A stretch of DNA of 64,000 nt from Octopus vulgaris (Eukaryota). The stretch's first letter is position 1; each line of letters opens with the position of its first letter. Where the stretch lies: positions 72,416,001 to 72,480,000 of the forward strand of contig OX597826.1 of NCBI GenBank assembly GCA_951406725.2, read 5' to 3'. Made by a program: the position numbers and the translations under genes. The notes below the pieces were generated by a model. It was given only the letters and a program-made list of their open reading frames with translations, was not told the DNA's origin and searched no databases. This document shows, piece by piece, positions 14,950 to 50,259 of this stretch.

Positions 14950-14986
14950 ATGGGCGTTACAATTGAGAAAATTGTTGAAGGCGACG
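14950..14986 (+). CDS. FKBP1A: FKBP12-type peptidyl-prolyl isomerase, coding exon 1 (MGVTIEKIVEGD-G)
   Basis: Matches the FKBP12 N-terminus (MGVQVETISPGDG). 37 nt, then donor gtaaga. Confidence 0.93.
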
Positions 14987-25366: not shown

Positions 25367-25414
25367 GCCAAACTTTCCCCAAAAAAGGACAAAAAGCTAC
25401 CGTCCATTATGTAG
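25367..25414 (+). CDS. FKBP1A: FKBP12 coding exon 2 (GQTFPKKGQKATVHYV)
   Basis: ttttag acceptor, gtgagt donor, 48 nt, phase 1-1. Matches GRTFPKRGQTCVVHYT. Confidence 0.95.
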   Translation, partial: AKLSPKKDKKLPSIM

Positions 25415-26000
25415 GTGAGTTTATCATTTTATATTGACTCTGAATCTTAGTTCATCGTTTAAGAACCTCCAGGTGGGATGCTGGTTATTTGGTGTCCCAT
25501 CAGAATATATTTTGAAGATGACATTCATTTCATGTCCTCATTTGAAATTAGTTCCAAATCTATTTTGCAGGATCCAGCAAACTGTTTTTTTTTCTTCTTT
25601 TCATCCAATCAGACAATTCTGTTAACAAAATGAATGTTAAATGATGCTAAGTTGCTTTTTTGTTTGTCTTCTGTTTCAATAACCTGTTTTTTATGAGAAC
25701 ATTGTTTTTCTTTGTCAAATTACTCTGAATAATAGACATAGCTACTCATTAGGCAGTCTTCACAGTTTATAACTGGGTGCAGACATGGTTGTTGTTAAGA
25801 AGCTGGTTTCTAAACCATATGATCTCAGGTTCAGCCCTACTGCACAGCACTTTGAGCAAGTGTCTTCTACCACAGTCCTGGGCTGACCAAAACCTTGTGA
25901 GTGATTTGGAAATTGAAAAAAATCCATTGTCTGTATATATATGTATGTGTGTATATATATATATATGCATGTGTGTGTATATGTAAATATATATATATGC

Positions 26001-26032
<32 letters not shown>

Positions 26033-26443
26033 GTGTGTGCATGTGCATAGGAGTGGGTGTGGTAAGAAGCTTGCTTCCCAACCACATGGTTCTGGGTTCA
26101 GTCCTACTGTGAGACATCTTGGGCAAGTGTTTTCTACTATAACTTCAGGCCAACCAAAGCCTTGTGAGTGGATTTGGTAGATGGAAACTGAAGGAACCCT
26201 GTCACATATATCTATGTATGTGCATCTGTGTTTGACCCCCACTCCATTGCTTGACAACTGGGGTTGGTGTGTTTATGTCCCTGTAACTTAGCAGTTCAGC
26301 AAAAAAGATTGATAGGATAAGTACCAGGCTTTAAAAAAAATGTACTGGGGTTGATACATTCAGTTATAAATTCTTCAGGGTGGTGCTCCAGCATGGCCGC
26401 AGTCTAATGACTGAAACAAATAAATGATAAAAAGATATATATC

Positions 26444-26712
26444 ACCATCATCATCATTTAACGTCCGTTTTCCGTGCTGGCATGGGTTGGACGGTTTGAC
26501 TGACAAGCCAGTAGGCTGCACCAGGCTCCAATCTGATCTGGCAAGGTTTCTACAGCTGGATGCCCTTCCTAATACTAACCACTCCGAGAGAGTAGTGGGT
26601 GCTTTTTAGGGGCCGCTAGCACAGGAGCCAGTCAGGTGGGCATGGCATTTATCACGTTCAGATGGTGCTTTTTACATGCCACTAGCACGGGACCCAGTCA
26701 GGGGGCACTGGC
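26444..26712 (-). mobile_element. Family T tail, reverse orientation
   Basis: (cat)n, ttaacgtccgttttcc...ggatgcccttcctaa. Confidence 0.8.
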
Positions 26713-28139
26713 CATATATATATGTATATGTGTGTGTATATACACACATATACATACAGTATATATATGTATATGTGTATGTATGTATTCCTGATATCAT
26801 GTGATGGTTGTAAATGAACATCATTGTCATATTAACAGTATTGTTTGTTTCCAGTCTTTCAAAGAAAATGTCTTGCCATGGGCCATGTTACCTTGTTTGG
26901 AATCAGGTTGAGGGCTGGCAACAGAAAGGGCGTAAAACAGTAGAAAATCTGCCTTAGTTAATTCGTCTGACCCATGCAAGCATGGAAAGTAAGCTTATTA
27001 TGATGATGATGATGTGCTCAGCTGGTTCATATAATGAATCAATGATCCACTTTTATTTTGCCTTCATATAATTGGTGATGTATTAATGAAGAGATAAGAC
27101 AGTTGAATGGATAATGTATTTGACTGCTGTCTCATAGATCATCAGTTCAAATCCTGAGCAGGATCTCATTCCCTTCACAACATAAAATTACAAATAAGCA
27201 CTGGTTCTGAAAAGCCACTCACCACTAAGAAAATATGCTGTGAAGTTTAATGGTCATCATCTCATTGTCTGGTTGAGCTTGCTCAGACATACCCTTTTCT
27301 GGATGTCTTTCGATTGCTAATTTCTAGTTTGTGGTTGCAGGTCCTAAAGACGATCACAGTGCCAGTCAAACTGATGGGTTTCCCAGACCAAGGTTCATGA
27401 AAGCATAATTTCTTCTGCAAAGTGGGAAGAAATTCAAAGATAAATTATCTTTTTTTTTTGTATACTTTGTATTTCATTCCCTACTATGATCCTCCTTTCC
27501 GATGGCAGTGGAATTTCTACTCTTTCCAGGGCTTCAGGATTTCATTGTGACCCTGGCTGGGTGGCTAATGGATGTTATGCTTTGCCAAAGGTCAACTAGT
27601 GATTTTGTCTGGGACTGCTTATTGAGTATTTGGAGCTAACCTGTATATCTACCAGCCATTTTCCTATCTGTGAAGGCACATGGCTCAGTGATTAGAGCAC
27701 CAGGCTCATAATCATGAGGTAGTGAATTCAATTCCTGGACCGGGCTGTGTGTTGTGTTTTCTTGATCAAGACACTTTATTTCACGTTTCTCCAGTTCACT
27801 CAGCTGTAGAAATGAGTTGCAACGTCACAGGTGCCAAACTGTATCGACCCCTTTGCCTTTCCCTTGGATAACAATGTTGGCGGGGAGAGAAGCGGCTGGT
27901 ATGCATGGGCAACTGTTGGTCTTCCACAAACAACTTTGCCTGGACTTGTGTCTCAGAGGGGGACTTTCTAGTTGCAATTCCATGGTCATTCATGACCAAA
28001 GGGCTTCTTACTCTTTTTACTCTCTCCTATCCACAAACTGGGGCTCTGATGGATGGGAATCATCACCACTCCATTTGTAGTTCATGTACAACCAAAGGAT
28101 TGTCAAATCAAAATTTATTGGGGTTAGTTTACTGATTAC

Positions 28140-28610
28140 CATATGGTTGTCTTGTCAGTTCTGACCTTACTGCAGTTAAGGTCCTGGACTGCTGACAACA
28201 TGGGCATTAGTTCGAACCTTATTGTTGTTAGGTTACTGATCACATGTGTATCAATTCTGGGGTACTGAATTGCTTGCCTCATGGACATCAATTCTAAGGT
28301 ACTGAACTATTGTCCATATGGTCATCACTCCAAACTTTACTGTAGTTAGGATACTGACCACATGGGTGTCAATTCTGTGATACTGGGCTTCTGATCACAT
28401 AGCCATCAGTTCAAATCTTATCATAGGTTGGTCATTGAAAACATGAGCATTGGTTCAAATCTTGTAGTTAGGTTCTTGATCACTTGATCATTGGTTCTAA
28501 TTTTATTGCAATGTACAAATTGACCATGTGGGAATCAGTACTCATATTTCTGTAGTTAAGAAACTGTACTATTGACTATATATGGTCACGAGTTTGAATT
28601 TTACTACCCA
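28140..28610. repeat. Degenerate minisatellite (~45-bp unit)
   Basis: Recurring gttcaaatctt...tgtagttagg.tactga.cacatgg. Confidence 0.5.
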
Positions 28611-29159
28611 CATCATCATCATCATTTGATCTTTAGTCCTAATTTTACTGCTAGAACCACAATGATGATGCATTCCAGAGCAAAGTACCGTTCTTCCAGT
28701 CTGCCTGACAGACATGAAACAGTTTCCACCACTCTGTAGTTAGAAGTAGGAAAAGATTAGCCATCTACCTGCAAAATAAAAACCATCCCACCCCTGCAAA
28801 ACTTGGAAGGCATAAACCAGAAGTGACAGGTAACATAAACTACCCTATGTTATGTTGGTATGTGTGAAAATGGTTATTTAACAAGAACACCTATTCCTTT
28901 ATTGGTTTCATTCATTGGGTGACATCTGTGCTGAGACTCTGCTGTCACTGGTTTTGGTATAATCACTTCATTCTCGGGATACGTTTTAGTTTAGTGTTCA
29001 TTTTATTGTATAACTAAATTTTTCATTTTTGACATAAAGGAATGCAACTTGACAGCAGTTTATGCTGGTGAGCATAAACAGAGAGAGAGAGAGACACGCA
29101 TGCACACATACTCAGGAGTGTGTGTATGCATGTGCATACATATATATATATATATATAT

Positions 29160-29545
29160 ATGTGGCTGTGTGGTAAGTAGCTTGCTAACCAACCACATGG
29201 TTGCGGGTTCAGTCCCACTGCGTGGCATCTTGGGCAAGTGTCTTCTGCTATAGCCCCGGGCCGACCAATGCCTTGTGAGTGGATTTGGTAGATGGAAACT
29301 GAAAGAAGCCTGTCGTATATATGTATATATATATGTATATGTGTGTCTGTGTTTGTCCCCCTAACATTGCTTGACAACCGATGCTGGTGTGTTTACGTCC
29401 CCGTCACTTAGCAGTTTGGCAAAAGAGACCGATAGAATAAGTACTGGGCTTACAAAGAATAAGTCCCGGGGTCGATTTGCTCGACTAAAGGCGGTGCTCC
29501 AGCATGGCCGCAGTCAAATGACTGAAACAAGTAAAAGAGTAAGAG
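29160..29545 (+). mobile_element. tRNA-headed SINE family B (CORE-like CTTGGGCAAGTG). Other copies: ~10058-10340, 19995-20440(-), 25780-25930, 26048-26435, 34466-34855, 41224-41565, 44898-45262
   Basis: TGGCTGTGTGGTAAG...GGGTTCAGTCCC pol III boxes, common tail ctccagcatggccgcagtcaaatgactgaaacaagtaaaag. Confidence 0.85.
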
Positions 29546-29549
29546 TATA

Positions 29550-29850
29550 TAGTGGTTGTCCACTCCTCATGCAGAGTTTGACTCCCTCCTGTACCAACAC
29601 CGTAGCACCATCATGGCATCTGATGTGGCTTTTTAAACCAGACAATGTTCTGAAAAGACACCCACATAGATTGCATATCTGATTTGGACCAGCAAGAGCA
29701 GCAGTTAAGTTCTGGTCTTTGTGGATCTTAGAATGTCTTTTGAGGCCTCCGTTGGATTTGCAAACCTTTGGCATGCATTGTATTGAAAGGTGTGCACAGA
29801 CATTTAGGCAGAATAGTTGGTGGAGGTTCATTTTCCATGGATTTCAAAGA
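29550..29850 (-). mobile_element. RTE LINE 3' end with two C2H2-like fingers
   Basis: KVCKSNGGLKRHSKIH and CNLCGCLFRTLSGLKSHIRCH, with no splice context. Confidence 0.55.
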
Positions 29851-30212
29851 TGTGTCTGAAATAAAGGAATAAGAGTTCTCTTGCTTGAAAAACAAGGAAG
29901 GATTAGCAACAGGAAGAGCATTCCTCTGTCAAACAGTGCCTCATAATATGTATTCATCACCCCATGGCAGCATAGAAAATAGACGGTTCCACTCTCAAAG
30001 CATTGGTCAATCAAATACTTTTTCCAGATTTCTTACATAGACAGGAAGTGTACGTGGGATTGTGTAATTTGATACTTCTTCTTAAGAGTATCAGGTAAGT
30101 GAACTGGTTTAAATTAGGAGTGAAAAACTGATTAACTGAATGTTTAAAATGATGGTAGGATGTTATTGCAACTACAACAATTTTAACTATTGAATTATTC
30201 TTTTCCTCTCAG

Positions 30213-30302
30213 CAACTCTTACAGATGGAACTAAATTTGATTCTTCCCGAGACCGCGACAAACCATTTACATTTAAAGTTGGAGGTGGTTTTGTAATCAA
30301 AG
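30213..30302 (+). CDS. FKBP1A: FKBP12 coding exon 3 ([30 protein letters not shown])
   Basis: cttttcctctcag acceptor, gtaagt donor, 90 nt, hallmark [11 protein letters not shown] motif. Confidence 0.96.
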
Positions 30303-30660
30303 GTAAGTAATACTTAACCATGTCATTAGAGCATCACACATGTTAGTTTGTGAAAAGTCAAAAGATTTTTTTTTTAAAGACATCAGTGAAAGTACTGAAA
30401 CTCTTTTATAATGTTTGTACTATTATTATTATTATTATTAAGGTGGCTCACTGGTCAAATTGCTTGCATGCTGGGCAAAATGCTTGGCGGCATTTTGTCT
30501 ATTTTTACATTCTGAGTTCAGATTCTGCTAAGATTGACTTTGCCCTTCACCTTTTTGGAGTTGATAAAATATGTACCAGTTGAGCTTTGGGGTAGATGTA
30601 ATTGTCTTACTCACTCCACTAAAATTGCTGGCCTTGTACCAAAATTTGAAACCAGGCTTC

Positions 30661-30921
30661 ATGGAGGGAATGACCAAGACCTTTGGCATTATATCGTGCT
30701 TGAGAAGAAGACCCATCAAGCCGAGCAAAGTCACAGTCGTGGCAGATGCTGGTGTCATGTAAATAGGCACCCATTATCCAATCGGAGTGGTTTGCATTAG
30801 GAAGAGCATCCAGCCATAGAAAACGATGCCAAATCAGACTGGAGCCTGGCGCAACCTTCCAGCATGCCAGTCCAGTCAAACCATCAAACTATGCCATCAT
30901 TAAGTGATGATGATGATGATG
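30661..30921 (+). mobile_element. Family T variant retaining the RTE ORF end
   Basis: EGMT...DLWHYIVLEKKT followed by the shared 3' block. Confidence 0.7.
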
Positions 30922-31390
30922 AAGGTGGCAAGCCGACAGAATTGTTAGTACACCAGTTAAGGCGGCGAACTGGCAGAAACGTTAGCATGTTGGGTGAAAT
31001 GCTTAGCGGTATTTTGTCTGCCGTTACGTTCTGAGTTCAAATTCCGCTGAGGTCGACTTTGCCTTTCATCCTTTCGGGGTCGATTAAATAAGTACCAGTT
31101 ACGCACTGGGTTCGATGTAATCGACTTAATCCCTTTGTCTGTCCTTGTTTGTCCCCTCTATGTTTAGCCCCTTGTGGGCAATAAAGAAATAAGAGTTGTT
31201 AGTACCGCAGGTAAAATGCTTAGTGGTGTTTCATCCATCTTTGTGTTTTGAGTTCAAATTCTGCCGAGGTCACCTTTTCCTTTCATTCTTTTGGTGTCGA
31301 TAAAATAAGTACCAGTTGAATATTGGGGTTGATGCAATTGACTTACCCATCTTCTGAAATTGCTGTCCTTGTGCCAAAATCTGAACTCAT
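30922..31390 (+). mobile_element. Family A SINE nested within another family A SINE
   Basis: Outer head is broken at ttgttagtac, which recurs at ~31196 after a full inner copy. Confidence 0.7.
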
Positions 31391-31499
31391 TATTATTTTT
31401 GTTGTGGTTTACGAAGTGTAATTTACTGTAAAATTTCAAAACAAGCTGTAGTGACAAAATCCGTTTCTCTTAGTGGTCCTTAAGTATTGGAACTCTGCG

Positions 31500-32340
31500 T
31501 GCTCTATCTTTGTCTCAGGTTAGGTTCTAACACGCCAACCACCCAGTGTCTTTTTGGTTTTAATTCTCCCTGGGGACATTATCTTTGCTCTCAGCTTTTG
31601 TCTTCCTCTCACAAACACCTGCCGTAGCCATGATGGAGCATTTTCTGCTTACCGCATTACTGTGATTCCAGCTGGATAGGATACAGTGCATGTAGCCACA
31701 AACCCATGATATCCTATCTCTACTTGGGGAACCATACCATAAACTGCCATTTTTGTACACCACATGATTCTATAAGCCCTTGTCTTTCTTATTTAAGGGC
31801 CTTTCTTTCACGAGCTCATTCCCTATTACCATTTTAATGCACAGTCTGTTTGACAATAACGTTTTTATGGCAAATCAGACCAAGCCATGGGATCAGGGCA
31901 CTGTGTTCTATTGTAATATGGTTTGGGAATACGAGTGATTTCTTCAAATCTCCCTGCATCTTACAGAAGTCTGGATGTTGGATTTCTTTTGTTAACTTTC
32001 CTGCTTTGTTCCTTCTTTTTATGGAAAGCAACTTTGTATTGATTCTAATTGCATTAATGTCGCTGCAACGTTGTTTTTGTGGATCAAGAACTTGTTCATG
32101 CTCCCAAGAATACTCTACAAGGGATGATGACTCATATCTGTCCAGGATATGTTCCAAGGACACATATCGTCTGCACCAATGGCATTTATCCATATCACTG
32201 TAAACCCAAATGCTTTCAGGAGCCAACCTGGCTGATCCCACTTTTTATAAGGTGTTCCATGATAGTTTCTTTTGTTACAGTTGTCTCCCTTGCTGCCTAG
32301 GAACATTGAATTTTCCAATCCTTGGTTGACTGTTCCACTT
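31500..32340 (-). mobile_element. Decayed REL-endonuclease non-LTR element (HERO/NeSL-like)
   Basis: CHWC...SLEHIL...YSWEHEQVL and DLKKSLVFPNHIT motifs, frameshifted. Confidence 0.6.
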
Positions 32341-32364
32341 CTTCAACATATTGTATTTCTTTGC

Positions 32365-33120
32365 TCACCATCTTCTTCTTCTTAGGCCTCTTGATTCTTT
32401 GGGGAACATAGGGCTGCAACGACATATTTCTAATGGACACAGTTCTGGGGGATCCTCTTCAGTTCGGCCCACATCATTCTGGCTGCCCTCACCTCTGCGC
32501 CAAGGCTGAAGTGTCTTATTCAAGGCAGTCTTCAACCTCTCAAGGATAATTTTCGTCAATACTTTCCCTGGGATGGTTAGCAGCATGACTCCCCTCCAGT
32601 TATTGCAGAATGATAGGTCCCCTTTCATGGGCAGCTTTACCAGGTGTCCTTTCTTCCAGTCTTCTGGCACTCTCTCTCCTGTTCCCAGACCTTCTTCAGG
32701 TGAGGGTACAACATCTCAGTTGAAGTCTGAACGTCTGCTTTCAATGCTTCAGGTGGTATCGCATCGGGGCCTGCTGCCTTTCCTCACTTAAGGGACTTGA
32801 TGGCTTTGGTGATCTCAGTTTTGGTTGGTGGATTGGTGTTGATGTCCTAGGAGCTCGGTCGGTTGTGGGATGTCTGGCGGGGGGGGACGACTGATGGTAC
32901 AGGTCTGTTTAGTGTTTCCTTAAAGTGATGCTCTCCGTTCTTCTTCGCCTGGGATAATGTTTCCATTCTTGTCTTTGACTGGATGGCTGGCTTTTCCAGA
33001 GAGTCTGTTCTGGTGATCTCATGCAGTCTCTTTATGTTTCTTTGGATTGCCGCAGTCTCTGCCTTCTCCGTCAGCTCCTCAATGACATTTCTCTTGTCCT
33101 TCCTTGCATTTGTCTTCACA
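32365..33120 (-). mobile_element. RTE LINE RT fragment with internal deletion
   Basis: PEDWKKGHLVKLPMKGDLSFCNNWRGVMLLTIPGKVLTKIILERLK; (aga)n tail at ~32370. Confidence 0.85.
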
Positions 33121-33806
33121 TTCTGATTGTTGAATATCGTTAATCAAATTCTTTTAATACTGAGTGCTTTATTGATATCTGCTAGGATTTTTTATTCCGT
33201 TTTGTTTTATATGCACGCACACACACACACACACCATTATCTACTTGCCATGCTGCCATGAATGAATTGGACAGGATGCCACAATCAGGGCCAACACATA
33301 TCCAGAATTACTGTTCACTTCAACAAATTGAAGGACCACATCTTGATCATGTTTCAAATTTATTTATTTATTAATTAATTTTTTTTTCATTTTGTATGGC
33401 TGGATGCTCTTTCTAACACCATCCACTTTAAACTATGGGTGAGCTGATCGCATCCCTGACAGACATGACTTTAGGGACCTCAGGACCTTTTCATCTCTGC
33501 TTGCTCACCAGCCTCTTTACAGGGTGGGAAGCAAGAATGTGTATGTGTGTGTGAGTGAGTAGTTATATATATTTCTTTATTACCTACAAGGGGCTAAACA
33601 TAGAGGGGACAAACAAGGACAGACAAAGGGATTAAGTCGATTACATCGACCCCAGTGCGAAACTGGTACTTTATTTATCAACCCTGAAAGGCAAAGTTCA
33701 CCTCGGCGGAATTTGAACTCAGAATGTAATGACAGATGAATTACCGCTAAGCATTTTGCCCGGCGCGCTAACGTTTCTGCCAGCTCACCACCTTGTGAGT
33801 AAGTAG

Positions 33807-33845
<39 letters not shown>

Positions 33846-34138
33846 AGTATAGTATATCTTGTGTGTACAAATAGATGTACAACTACTGCTTTTAAGCTTA
33901 CAGCTTCTTGTAGATTATCAACAAAATACTTAAAGAAAGCATCACCATCTATCCAACTCTGGACGTTAGTTCTCTGTATCATAATGCTATTAAGTAGTGT
34001 TCCTTGATCATTTGATGTGGTTAAACATTTAATTACACTTGGAACATCCAATGCAGAGTTCCACACAACCACAATCAGGAAATGTATGTAGGAACTAATG
34101 ATGTAAACTTGTGTTTTATATTTCTCCTATATATATCT

Positions 34139-34452
34139 ACTGTTGTGTCTGGGGAGAGTCATTTTCTTTTTGTGCCTTATTATTGTAACACACTCACCGG
34201 TAAAATTTCCACTTTTTTTCTTATTTTTATTTTCCTAAAACTTTCTTTGCGTCTTGCAACCTTTTCAATAGTTTTGACTCTTTTCAATAGTTTTTAGGAA
34301 AATAAAAATAAGAAAAAAAAAGTTGAAATTTTACCGTTGAGTGTGTTACATTATAAGGCACAAAAAGAAAATGACTCTCCCCAGACACAACAGAATATGC
34401 TTCAACACTCAAACTCATATAAAGAATCTTGCAAACCAAATCCAAAAACGAA
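34139..34452. mobile_element. Palindromic foldback element, family P2, copy 2
   Basis: tgttgtgtctggggagagtcattttc recurs inverted as gaaaatgactctccccagacacaaca, and shares sequence with 12806-13112. Confidence 0.8.
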
Positions 34453-34874
34453 ATATATATATATAGGCACAGGAGTGGCTGTGTGGTAAATAGCTTGCTT
34501 ACCAACTACATGGTCCTGAGTTCAGTCCCATTGCATGGCACCTTGGGCAAGTGTCTTCTATTATATTCTTGGGCTGACCAAAGCCTTGTGAGTGTATTTG
34601 GTTGATGGAAACTGAAAGAAGCCTGCCACACCCACACGCGTGTGTGTATATTTGTGTGTCTGTGTTTGTCCCCCCTAGCATTGTTTGACAACCGATGCTG
34701 ATGTGTTTACGTCCCTGTAACTTAACAGTTTGGCAAAAGAGACTGACAGAATAAGTACTAGGCTTACAAAGAATAGGTCCTGGGGTCAATTAACTCTACT
34801 AAAGGTGGTGCTCCAGTATGGCTGCAGTCAAATAACAGAAACAAGTAAAAGAAAAAAAGTATACATACACACGT

Positions 34875-34907
<33 letters not shown>

Positions 34908-34975
34908 TATAAAATGACTGTTATATTGTCGAAATGTTTCATGAGGCTATATAATTTTTTTTCTTTCCTCTTCAG

Positions 34976-34998
34976 GCTGGGATGAAGGTATTACCCAG
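34976..34998 (+). CDS. FKBP1A: FKBP12 coding exon 4, a 23-nt micro-exon (GWDEGITQ)
   Basis: Long pyrimidine tract plus cag, donor CAG|gtaact. Supplies the invariant GW(D/E)EG motif with matching phases. Confidence 0.93.
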
Positions 34999-36968: not shown

Positions 36969-37042
36969 ATGAGTCTTGGTGAAAGGTCAAAATTGATCTG
37001 CACACCTGACTATGGATACGGTCCAAAGGGTTATCCAGGAGT
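36969..37042 (+). CDS. FKBP1A: FKBP12 coding exon 5 ([25 protein letters not shown])
   Basis: ttttag acceptor, matches [24 protein letters not shown], ends at the U12 donor ATATCCTTT. Confidence 0.93.
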
Positions 37043-37276
37043 ATATCCTTTTGGCATGTCACAGGTGAATATTTCATACATTTGAACAGGTTGAATATAG
37101 CAAACTTGCTTGGCCAGGTATCAAGTTCTTGTATGAGGGAATGATTTGAGTTATAAAGTACATTATAGTAAGTAATAGTGATTGATTAGATAGGGAATTA
37201 CCATATGCCCTGGCCTAGAAGTGGATGTGGTATATAATATAAACATTTGTATAATATAATATAAACAAGCATGACC

Positions 37277-37780
37277 TTTGAACGTTGGGCCTCACAGAAG
37301 CAATGACGAAAGACTGAGACCTCTGGAGACATGCTGTGACTGTGAAGACCCAACAAATAACGTGAGTTCATGGCTGTTTCCTGCACCAGCTTCACATAAC
37401 CAGCCCCAGCCCATCCAAAGTACCTTGGATCGCAGGATGGCCTGCTGTGCTTACCTTGGATCGTAGGGAGACCTGCTGTGCTTGAGGAGACCTATTGAGT
37501 CAAGTACATCAACATCAAATAAAAATCAAATGGAAATTGTAGTTGTGATACCTGTACCAGTGGCATGTAAAAAGCGCCACCTTGACTGGCTTCCGTGCCA
37601 GTGGCACGTAAAAAGCACCCACTACTCTCACGGAGTGGTTGGCGTTAGGAAGGGCATCCAGCTGTAGAAACTCTGCCAGATCAGACTGGAGCCTGATGCA
37701 GCCTCCTGGCTTCCCAGGCCCCGGTTGAACCGTCCAGCCCATGCTAGTGTGGAAAACGGACGTTAAACGATGATGATGAT
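37277..37780 (+). mobile_element. 5'-truncated RTE LINE tail (family T) with ORF C-terminus, tandem units and (gat)n tail, inside the U12 intron
   Basis: TLGLTEAMTKD*DLWRHAVTVKT, then GGCACGTAAAAAGCACC units, GGCGTTAGGAAGGGCATCCAGCTGTAGAAA and (gat)n. Confidence 0.8.
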
Positions 37781-38069
37781 TCGTACACCATCACAGTCTT
37801 TCCAAATCCTGCTGCATTTATATGGAAATTTCAAGAGTAGGCCGTTCCATCGATCGGATCACCTGGAACACTTATTGCCATAACTGACAGAGAACCAGTT
37901 ATGGTTAAGCTTATTTGTTTAGATTGCAAAATTTACTTAATTTTACTTATAATCCCATCCTGTACTTGTATGCATGAATGTATGTGAGTGGGGTATCTTC
38001 CTAAATTAGTTACATTATATGTTTTCCTTGTCTACTATTTACTATCCTGGTAAGTAAACTCTGCAAGTG

Positions 38070-38624
38070 AAATCAAAATCAAATTCGATGACTGGCATCC
38101 GTGCTAGCGGGGTGCAAAGAGCACCATACGAGTGTGATCGTTGCCAGAGCGGCTAACTGGCTTCCGTGCCAGTGGCACATAAAAGGCACCATTCGAGTGT
38201 GATTGTTACAAGTGTTGCCTTACTGGAACTTCTGCCTGTGTTAGTAGGGTGCCAAGAGCACCATCCGAGCGTGATTGTTGCCAGAGTGACTAACTGGCTT
38301 CTGTGCTGGTGGCACATAAAAAGCACCATTTAAGTGTGATCATTACCAGCATTTCCTTACTGGCACCTGTGCCGGTGGCATGTGTAAAAAGATTCAAGCG
38401 AGGTCATTGCCAGTACCGCCTGACTGGCCCCCGTGCCGGTGGCACATAAAAAGCACCCACTACACTCTCGGAGTGGTTGGTGTTAGGAAGAGCATCCAGC
38501 TGTAGAAACACTGCCAGATCAAGATTGGTCCCTGGTGCAGCCATCTGGTTCGCCAGCCCTCAGTCAAAATCGTCCAACCCATGCTAGCATGGAAAGCAGA
38601 CGTTAAACAACAATGATGATGATG
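38070..38624 (+). mobile_element. Family T tail with ~6 tandem units, inside the U12 intron; near-identical to 45302-45845
   Basis: Both start gaaatcaaaatcaaattcgatgactggcatccgtgctagc. Confidence 0.85.
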
Positions 38625-38709
38625 TGAGTGTGTGTGTTTCTATATATTTTTGTTGTGCATTTGTACCTCTGTAACACATTATTATATCTGCTTTCCTTGA
38701 CTGTCTTAC

Positions 38710-38791
38710 TATTCCACCAAATTCAACATTGATCTTTGATGTTCAGCTCATATCTCTCTCACCCACCAACAGTTACAAAAACCAGAACTGA
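38710..38791 (+). CDS. FKBP1A: FKBP12 coding exon 6 (IPPNSTLIFDVQLISLSPTNSYKNQN*)
   Basis: Matches IPPHATLVFDVELLKLE, stop TGA 38789-38791. Total CDS 37+48+90+23+74+82 = 354 nt = 117 aa plus stop. Confidence 0.93.
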
Positions 38792-39470
38792 TGCCTTTAA
38801 CTTGACTCTCAACTCTCTTCGAACCTAACCTATCTTTATACGATTATTTACTGTACATTCATGATGATGGCTACTCCTACGACAACAATTCACCATGTGG
38901 CCAGTCCTGCAAAACTCACTCTGGGTGTCAAGTTTTTAATATTTTCTTTTCTATCTTCTGCCATAAGAGTGAAGCTGCCATTTTCATAAATCCAAAGATT
39001 TTTACTCAAAATTTCACTTTCAAGATTTTTTTTAATTCTATACTTTTTAAAATTTGAGTATATTTCTTGATTTCCTCTGTGTTGTTAGCTTATGGAGAGA
39101 AAATGTAGGGCTTAAGTCCTTATACTAATTTCATTCTGTACAATTCACACAGAGTTGTATAACAAAACTACAAACTAGCTCTGGGAACTACTATTTCTTA
39201 CAAATTCACTTAAGTTAAAGAGGTTTTCCTTCTTTTTTATTATTCTTTTTGATTAAATATTCTCTGATCATCTTAAATAAAATTTTCTCTGAATATCTTA
39301 AAAAAGAATTTTGTATTTACAAACAATTTTTTGAAATTTTAGGTTAAAAAAAAAAAACGAATATATTTTCAAAGTAAAAGTTAGGCCAGTATCAATGTAA
39401 AAAGTTTTCAATTGGAAACATTCTGAAATAATTCTAAATAATAACATAATAAAACAATGTTTAGTCTTCA
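38792..39470 (+). other. Probable FKBP12 3' UTR with AATAAA at 39276 and 39448
   Basis: U-rich, TE-free stretch after the stop, two AATAAA hexamers. Confidence 0.45.
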
Positions 39471-39738
39471 TTTGGAAACAATTCCTTTTCTTTGTGTTGG
39501 TTTTTGTTTATCAGAGGAAGTCTGTCAAATTTTTATCAAAATATTTTCATTCCAAAAATGAAAAAAAACCCCTCTATTTGCAGACAAATTTGGATCAAAG
39601 AAACACATGAAGTCTTTCAAAGAGAGGACGTGTAAAATTGTAGTGTTTAGTTAACAGCAACAAAATTGGTCAGTAGTATTTCCTGAGATTTGAAGAACTT
39701 TTAAGGTTTAATACTTAGCTGTAGTCTATTAGTGTTGA

Positions 39739-45845: not shown

Positions 45846-48022
45846 GTACATAACAGACAACAGAACTATCAGAGAAAAGAGTAAACTGTTTTTTTATTTG
45901 TTCTTAAAATGTTTTTGTTTAGTTGGTTTTTGTGTAGAGGTTAGATGGGGGTGAGGGGGTGGGGAGAGAATAATGATTTACATTGAATCACTGAAACATA
46001 CAAAAGGAGAACTTAAAATATACAACTGAAGACATTTTTACTGAGGGGTGGGTGGTAGGTGGTGTCTTAGTGGTGGGGGGGACAGACATGTATGTATAAA
46101 ATGTGAAAAAGTTAAAGAAATTGTTTTGTTTTTTTTTTTTTGTTAAAAAGAGAATATTTAAGACTTGGATTAATTGAAATGTATTTTAATATGTAATATG
46201 TAAAACTATTAACATTACAGACATCAATGCTGGCATCATAAAACAAAAACAAAAAAATTTACCAGCAATCTAAGGCCCATAGTCACTGGTGTATGAATTA
46301 TGAACTGGTTTGAAACCAGTCCCTTCAGTCACTGACAAATGTTTAGTATTTTAGTCACAAGTAAAGGAGGTAGTGAGTCTTCAGAAACGTAGACTATACT
46401 CTAATTTGGATACAATGATAGAATATTCTAGGATTTAACTAGGGCAGTAAACAAATCTTTTAGCTTGTTATCTAGTACTGCCATTTACAAAGGCAAAAAG
46501 CAAAATCTATTTAGATTGTGTCTAAATCTGCCAAAGGCATATTAAATTGATAGAAACATTTGCAATATATGAATATATCAAAGTTCATTTAGGGGGAGAA
46601 AAAAAAGTCCCCACAATAACAAAACATTTGATCACATTGGAGTATTTTTATGGATTGAAGTTTATTTGAATAGGAGAAGAAGAAGAAAAAAAAAGCTGTG
46701 ATGGTGTTTAAGTTCTTAATCCTAAATTAATTCTGATACATCAATAATGTCTTAAAATATTCATCATAGTGTTCACTAGTGTTGGTTTTTAATTATTAAG
46801 TATATATATATTTGTATGTGTTTGTGTGTGGACATATATATGTATGTATAATTTGCACATGTCTGTAATTCTATGTAGACATGTAAGTCTATTTTAATTA
46901 TATAATTTACGAGTGTACATGTGTTTCCATGGGAAACAAATTGTCAGTAATATTCTGAAGGACTTTCATCCATAGACAGACGGACAACTAAATGGTGAAG
47001 AATATCCTGATGACTTAAAATCTTTGTCAATTTTTATTTGTTGAACATTTTCACTCAGATTACAAATGTCAGTAGGAAGTGTTCATATTTGCATTGGATA
47101 TAGTGAGATCAGGTTTGTTAATAAGTCCAGGTAATGGCAAACAGTGTGTGTATGTGTGTGTGTGTGTTAAGATAATTATTCTGACAACCCAACAGAGTTC
47201 CTGTTTTGTATAACACAAGAGGAGGGGCTAATTGGTACACATCCACTACAGTAATTATTAAATAGGAATCATAAAAAATAACGAACAAGATATGTTTAAT
47301 TTTCAAGAAAAAGAAGAGGAGGAACAAATTTAAAATATAAATATATGACTGTTTTTTTTTAAGAAAAAGAAAAGGAATAAAAATGTTTCTATGTAAACCT
47401 GGAATAAAATCAGAGATTACAAGGGTTTTACGAGAAGGGGTAGGGATCGTTTTATGATTTTTTTTCCTTACAGGAAGAAGCAAAGAAGAAATCTGATAGT
47501 TTGAAAACACAGTGAATCTACTTGAAAAGCTATATTTTTATCATCCATACCACTACCTGGTATTCTACAATATCTAAAGACAGCCAAGTTGAAACTAATT
47601 CAGTGTGACCCCACTGATGGATCATCTACAGAAATGCTACACTGAAGTAGCGTAGCATTACTTCACCAGGAAAAACATGAAAGCTAGTTCAGTTGAACAG
47701 CAGGATCAATAACCGGTTGTTAGAACTAAGATCCAGTGATGAGGTGGGATGGATTCACTAATATCCTCACCTCTGAACTCATATAAGAACTAGAAGGTAA
47801 GTACAGACTTACCATAATACAAAATTTAATAAATGATTCACAGTAGAACAGGAATTATATAATCACATTCATTGGCTTACAGCTGTTTTTGCTATAAGGA
47901 ACTGTGCATCCAAAGGAGAACTGGGTAATAATGTGACATGGCTTCATCAGAGATTCTTATAGTAGAAATCACTAAGCCAATGAATGTGATTATGTCAAGT
48001 CTATTCTTTTGTCATTCATTTG

Positions 48023-50150
<2,128 letters not shown>

Positions 50151-50259
50151 GTGTGTGTGTGTGTATGTATGTAGAAGGTTGAAAAGGAACACACGAGATG
50201 ATATATATGGAAAAAAAGTGAAGGTAGAAAATGCTAAAATAACTTTATAAAAAACATTT

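Follow-up and report, generated by a model that had tools for sequence, protein, structure and literature searches.

A U12-type AT-AC intron ahead of the IPPN motif of octopus FKBP12 and its probable counterparts in other FKBP genes

The FKBP12 gene of Octopus vulgaris raises a simple question: by what splicing event does its reading frame reach the conserved IPPN motif near the end of the FKBP domain? The original prediction for this locus, made from the letters alone, held that the frame gets there only through removal of a U12-type AT-AC intron at 37043..38709. Positions are those of the window, the whole 64-kb stretch of O. vulgaris DNA that was analysed.

The gene lies on the + strand of the window and consists of six exons, separated by four GT-AG introns and a fifth, AT-AC, intron. 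Coding starts at the ATG at 14950 in exon 1 (coding part 14950..14986), which is followed by intron 1 in phase 1. Exon 2 (25367..25414) and exon 3 (30213..30302) also end in phase 1, the latter in the Gly59 codon, and the 23-nt exon 4 (34976..34998) ends in phase 0. Exon 5 (36969..37042) breaks off inside the Val91 codon. Intron 5 (37043..38709; 1667 nt, phase 2) separates it from exon 6, whose coding part (38710..38791) starts IPPNSTLIFDVQL and closes with a TGA at 38789-38791. The 3' untranslated region extends over 38792..39508 as far as the contigs reach, its true end not being readable from them, and contains A(A/T)TAAA at 39252, 39276 and 39448. Exon 5 aligns to residues 66-89 and exon 6 to residues 91-106 of solved FKBP1A chains, so that the split codon supplies residue 90 and no gap is left.

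Intron 5 opens with ATATCCTTTT at 37043 and closes with ...TTCCTTGACTGTCTTAC at 38709. It carries two features of a U12 AT-AC intron, an RTATCCTT-type donor and a TCCTTRAC-type branch near the 3' end. The 5' splice site, ATATCCTT at 37043..37050 (consensus in PMC3291851 and PMC2846911), is the single occurrence of this sequence in the window, both strands included. The branch site, TCCTTGAC, occupies 38694..38701 on the + strand, and its presumed branch A at 38700, probably the one used, stands at position -10; 9 nt follow it, with no separate polypyrimidine tract between branch and acceptor. The branch-plus-AC motif occurs at three places in the window (38709, 60236 and, on the minus strand, 45695), and only that at 38709 precedes an FKBP exon. 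In donor, branch and termini the intron is like the canonical U12-type AT-AC intron of PMC3584512. The predicted coordinates thus proved exact, with donor, branch and AC all present in this mollusc FKBP12. The claim about the frame also held: no GT-AG or GC-AG pair among donors at 36975-37119 and AG acceptors at 38550-38759 gives the FKBP end, and the sole pair passing the filter yields a 99-aa product ending YPFDVKQQ, without that end.

Between its ends the intron is rich in interspersed repeats. Comparison within the window places repeat copies at 37445-37781 and 38070-38627, and 895 of the 1667 bases have other copies there. The repeat is abundant, ends in (GAT)n, makes up about half of the intron and cross-maps very deeply in the sequencing runs. 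An Rfam scan of the window gave 0 matches. An extended AT-rich microsatellite at about 48000-50250 of the window (GC 0.08 in 48001-50000) gives rise to spurious long open frames.

Four sequencing runs from four studies, out of 20 listed, were compared with the window; their RNA status is a guess, none being recorded as RNA. Contigs of all four putative RNA runs join 37042 exactly to 38710, skipping 1667 nt bounded by AT and AC, with 0 letters of sliding possible, which is the junction that the original prediction called for. Contig depths at this joint are 12.4, 1428.9, 1965.1 and 730.3, contig depth being a poor measure. The GT..AG joint of intron 4, skipping 1970 nt, is present in all four runs as well, and the end of exon 3 is a loose end ahead of exon 4 in three of them (X2, X6 and X11). 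It is extremely improbable that the joined form is a processed gene copy in DNA or an assembly artefact and the locus itself is not so spliced: although the RNA status of the four runs is guessed, the joint coincides to the base with the conserved AT and AC signals. In three of the four runs the depth of the joined contigs is far above that of unique intron contigs (about 5-11). The joined contigs also match RefSeq and show 0-1 differences from the genomic 3' region.

A 52-nt part of exon 6 (38759-38810), which lies between CTCTC repeats and encodes a 9-residue C-terminal extension, is present in the main contigs of all four runs. RefSeq isoform X2 (XP_036364332.1) is without it, no canonical splice ends lie there, and O. 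bimaculoides proteins end LSLNSL, as though without it. The stretch is likely a lineage-specific insertion or allele.

Homologous introns were found at other loci by a metagenome DNA scan in which the exon and RTATCCT were fixed, the offset was free over four positions, the first base was A or G and the acceptor was unconstrained. The scan motif has one match in the window and none in 100 shuffles. The scan returned 22 loci in 11 sequence groups, with the donor in phase 2 in every locus; the groups were typed as FKBP12 or FKBP3 by their best named matches, which are too even for lineage naming. Twenty loci, in nine groups, are FKBP12-type, and the intron starts AT in all 20. Thirteen of them (six of the nine groups) contain the whole intron, invariably AT..AC, 72-1897 nt long and with a branch reading TCCTTRAC or TTCTTAAC; no acceptor was found within the 20-2651 nt available at the other seven. 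The 72-nt intron, at L006, has the donor ATATCCTA and is the sole one of the 22 loci without T at +8. Loci L001, L006 and L009 have kept the U12 intron, and introns 3 and 4 are absent from them. The scan and both protein queries used below contained the donor or its YP reading, and they are therefore blind to genes whose intron is lost or U2-type. The AT-AC intron at the FKBP12 IPPN site is not mollusc-specific, being present in nine FKBP12-type sequence groups and in Nematostella.

AT-AC termini do not by themselves name the spliceosome, as U2-dependent AT-AC introns exist (PMC1557818). That intron 5 is real but of this kind, and removed by the major spliceosome, is nevertheless very improbable. 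It combines the full donor ATATCCTT with the branch TCCTTGAC adjoining the 3' end, the same two signals recur in 13 of 13 complete homologous introns, and the minor intron of zebrafish fkbp3 responds to loss of rnpc3, as the human one does to MDS (PMC11347168). Under removal by the U12 spliceosome, the preferred reading, the U11/U12 particle would read donor and branch together, A38700 would form the lariat, U4atac/U6atac/U5 would finish the splicing, and distance would select the AC 9 nt past A38700, all by analogy with the U12 biology described in PMC3584512.

A general model holds U12 introns to be rate-limiting (PMC3584512), and intron 5 could in principle be a regulated switch, with retention or use of a cryptic donor lowering functional FKBP12. 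Such a donor exists: the U2-like CAG|GTGAAT, with its GT at 37065..37066, lies 22 nt into the intron. The optimum from branch to acceptor is put at 11-13 nt in PMC3584512 and at 12-15 nt in PMC3291851, and the octopus branch A, 9 nt from the end, is just under the former, though the papers may count differently. Unspliced contigs span the donor in X1, X2 and X6 (depths 5, 6.16 and 10.8) and the acceptor in X1 (depth 4.8). These contigs are shallow, however, as are those of the U2 intron 4 (4.09-5.5 in X6), contig depth again being a poor measure, and no joint from 37065 appears among the 15 of 66 joints listed. The contig data give no sign of special retention, yet cannot settle retention. In the 13 complete homologous introns the last branch A is at -11 (seven loci), -12 (four) or -14 (two), which makes the octopus -10 the shortest by 1 nt. 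The original remark that the branch A lies short, about 9 nt from the end, is right in its count; the distance falls short of the commonest homologous value by just 1 nt, and splicing is exact. A switch at intron 5 is distinctly unlikely.

The spliced product has 117 aa and is letter-for-letter equal to RefSeq XP_029644373.1 of Octopus sinensis, which means that the splicing of intron 5 is already annotated in RefSeq; the record (12 kDa FK506-binding protein-like, isoform X1) names the protein, not the intron class. The octopus product contains PF00254 alone (residues 14-105, 121.8 bits), plus the 9-residue C-terminal extension. The N-terminal BTHB domain (PF18410), the mark of FKBP25, is absent from it (P0284) and present in P0311 and P0377. 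Its identity is 62-69% to seven named FKBP12-type proteins, against 41-47% to four FKBP3 proteins, and its best Atlas clusters are named Fkbp12 and FKBP1B. In a 25-row tree, FKBP3 forms a 100/100 branch without the octopus protein, most other forks are open and the FKBP12 side is unresolved; a constraint placing the octopus protein with FKBP3 was not rejected (p-AU 0.264). A single FKBP_C domain and a sequence closer to FKBP12 than to other FKBPs support placing the gene in the FKBP12 (FKBP1) subfamily.

With intron 5 retained, translation continues as V-Y-P-F and ends after 104 aa, and a model broken at this intron matches only profile positions 2-79 of 94. Splicing would be needed for a complete FKBP domain, because the unspliced frame ends at 104 aa and loses Pfam profile positions 80-94. 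The portion lost on read-through presumably includes Ile91 and Phe99 together with the final beta strand.

Other parts of the octopus protein are unusual. Exons 2-3 (25367-30302) encode VHYVATL where most relatives have VHYTGTL, and an altered 10-residue stretch where most relatives read K[IL]GxG[EQ]VI[KR]G. Both changes are shared with O. bimaculoides, with which this gene forms a pair on a long branch in the tree, and they could alter ligand or partner binding. A further O. bimaculoides protein, P0082 (UniRef A0A0L8HLH2), is an 84-aa FKBP12-like model unlike the main gene, with the frame lost near the end of exon 3; it is possibly a second, decayed FKBP12 copy.

Prediction tools that allow only GT-AG introns were expected to misannotate this gene, and three models do misread the intron. 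The O. vulgaris model CAI9732154.1 is identical to XP_029644373.1 as far as intron 5, so that this protein does not separate the two species; the model comes out letter for letter when the cryptic GT at 37065 is spliced to the exon 6 AG at 38772. A0A0L8FRX8 of O. bimaculoides runs into intron 5 and comes to 168 aa. Nematostella EDO31332.1 ends GVYPFLLCLNE and was corrected later in XP_001623432.2. RefSeq has intron 5 right in both O. sinensis and O. bimaculoides.

The error leaves a recognizable trace, as a phase-2 RTATCC donor translates as x-Y-P when a gene caller reads through it. A set of 121 FKBP12-like proteins was made up of the best 120 of 5256 hits and one cluster member. Of these, 21, EDO31332.1 among them, show [VI]-Y-P and then unrelated tails at the intron codon; the query contained V-Y-P, so this proportion is not a frequency. 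The remainder comprise 88 proteins that match the spliced pattern, 10 spliced variants, one that diverges later and one without a pattern match. I-Y-P stands in three of these 21 read-through proteins, a reading that only an AT start can give if the phase is the same. FKBP3-like proteins read through as K-Y-P in 31 of the 120 listed, by pattern and including named fish and bird models, and in three more by eye among 11 unmatched, from a query that also contained the donor motif. This minor intron accounts for wrong C-termini in public models of both FKBP12 and FKBP3, and a tail starting Y-P straight after the loop is a simple diagnostic of read-through into it.

The paralog FKBP25 (FKBP3) carries a BTHB domain at its N terminus, and its loop exceeds that of FKBP12 by one residue. 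Two of the 22 loci, L007 and L021, are FKBP25-type, and both read CAA|GTATCCTT; the site splits, in phase 2, the Lys codon ahead of IPPN in full-length FKBP3, and no acceptor was found in the 2922 and 489 nt searched downstream. Human and mouse FKBP3 have the minor 5' site CAAGTATCCTTT, and those minor-intron lists contain no other FKBP (PMC6717393), which confirms what the original prediction said of this gene. The 5' site of the human, mouse and zebrafish FKBP3 minor intron is the same as that of L007 and L021 (PMC6717393, PMC11347168), from which we strongly infer that the listed human minor intron occupies the same site as theirs. FKBP25 has one extra residue upstream of the site, so that the match with FKBP12 depends on the downstream anchor, and its intron starts GT, compared with AT in octopus FKBP12. 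The suggestion of an ancestral FKBP-family intron retained in a mollusc is supported as regards a site shared with FKBP3; the intron is no mollusc relic.

A second intron invites comparison between the paralogs. Octopus intron 3 (30303-34975) lies in phase 1 in the Gly59 codon, and the corresponding intron of the FKBP25-type loci L007 and L021 lies 2 nt further, directly before a Trp codon. An identical position was rejected on account of these 2 nt, and the two form a near-intron pair. The Nematostella fragment P0271, which ends VIKGEN, suggests a phase-1 intron 3 site there too.

Published entries extend the comparison beyond octopus. Honeybee FK506-bp2 (gene 552115) has an AT-AC U12 intron (PMC3291851, Table S1 row 54, credited to Mount et al.) and shares both the gene family name and the AT-AC subtype with octopus FKBP12; the table gives no position, and we take the site to be the same. 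In Phytophthora sojae, P. ramorum and P. infestans, a gene for a peptidyl-prolyl isomerase contains an AT-AC intron that Russell et al. were the first to find and that has served as evidence for an early minor spliceosome (PMC2846911). In the supplement of that paper its 10-nt flanks translate as A-W-G|I-Q-P across a phase-2 joint; the entry is unlabelled and was assigned as the AT-AC intron common to P. sojae and P. infestans, and the match covers 20 nt and six residues, the other two frames being open too. Like octopus intron 5, the Phytophthora intron is AT-AC with a U12 donor and branch and in phase 2; it differs in its length of about 100 nt and in a branch further from the 3' end. The available part of PMC2846911 neither names the gene as FKBP12 nor compares positions with animals.

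A printed 12-kDa FKBP sequence has AWGIQPN directly ahead of SVLDF (PMC11848173). This is the place of octopus PGVIPPN before STLIF, with one residue more before the site in the AWGIQP type than in animal FKBP12, so that homology again depends on the downstream anchor. The printed sequence is, we assume, the Arabidopsis protein. From these six residues, the Phytophthora intron likely shares its site with octopus intron 5, in the same codon.

Searches for further members were negative within their scope. No AWGIQP-type protein occurs among the 408 proteins collected. Six short motifs for the same 3' flank, sought in other protist and fungal introns in the available PMC2846911 supplement, hit six places, none fitting, where line breaks may hide matches. 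FKBP is absent from the supplements of PMC2831892 and PMC10639083 and from the main texts of PMC2426677, PMC7367187, PMC6865273 and bioRxiv 10.1101/2020.10.19.345900, and the identifier At5g64350 is absent from the available part of the PMC11347168 supplement. O. sinensis was included in a minor-intron survey in which molluscs are relatively rich in such introns (PMC10639083).

An alternative to common descent, that FKBP12, FKBP25 and the Phytophthora gene each acquired a minor intron of their own at nearby sites, is unlikely. A one-residue length difference just upstream of the site, the difference in subtype (AT in FKBP12, GT in FKBP25) and the shortness of the Phytophthora flanks would fit such gains. 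Set against these, all interrupt, in phase 2, the codon immediately ahead of I-[PQ]-P, all belong to a class that makes up <0.5% of introns, and switching from AT-AC to GT-AG is an already described route (PMC3291851).

A single intron site from the last eukaryotic ancestor, common to FKBP paralogs, is probable from these sequence comparisons. The site, in phase 2 of the codon ahead of I-P-P-N, would have been kept as AT-AC in many FKBP12 genes and, through a subtype switch, as a GT-type minor intron in FKBP25/FKBP3; its intron would have been lost or converted in vertebrate FKBP1A/1B. To our knowledge, vertebrate FKBP1A has no intron at this site. With high confidence we read 37043-38709 as the last intron of octopus FKBP12, exactly removed at its AT and AC ends, most likely by the U12 spliceosome, and likely passed down from a very old FKBP gene instead of arising in molluscs.

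Octopus intron 5 itself is not newly annotated: RefSeq splices it, and the AT-AC intron of honeybee FK506-bp2 is already listed. Nor does it change anything known about the minor spliceosome. The likely new point is a modest one: paralogs and kingdoms would share a single intron site, with a split in subtype. We found no publication uniting the honeybee, FKBP3 and Phytophthora entries as one site; Russell et al. 2006, Mount et al. 2007 and the intron databases lay outside the search and may state it. If the reading is true, one ancestral site would link honeybee FK506-bp2, vertebrate FKBP3 and the Phytophthora intron, which the literature lists separately, and the subtypes would be split by paralog, AT-AC in FKBP12 and GT-AG in FKBP25, with loss in vertebrate FKBP1A/1B. 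The gene, short and universal, with a single minor intron retained in different paralogs and possibly in different kingdoms, would then be a convenient marker for intron loss and for switching from AT-AC to GT-AG.
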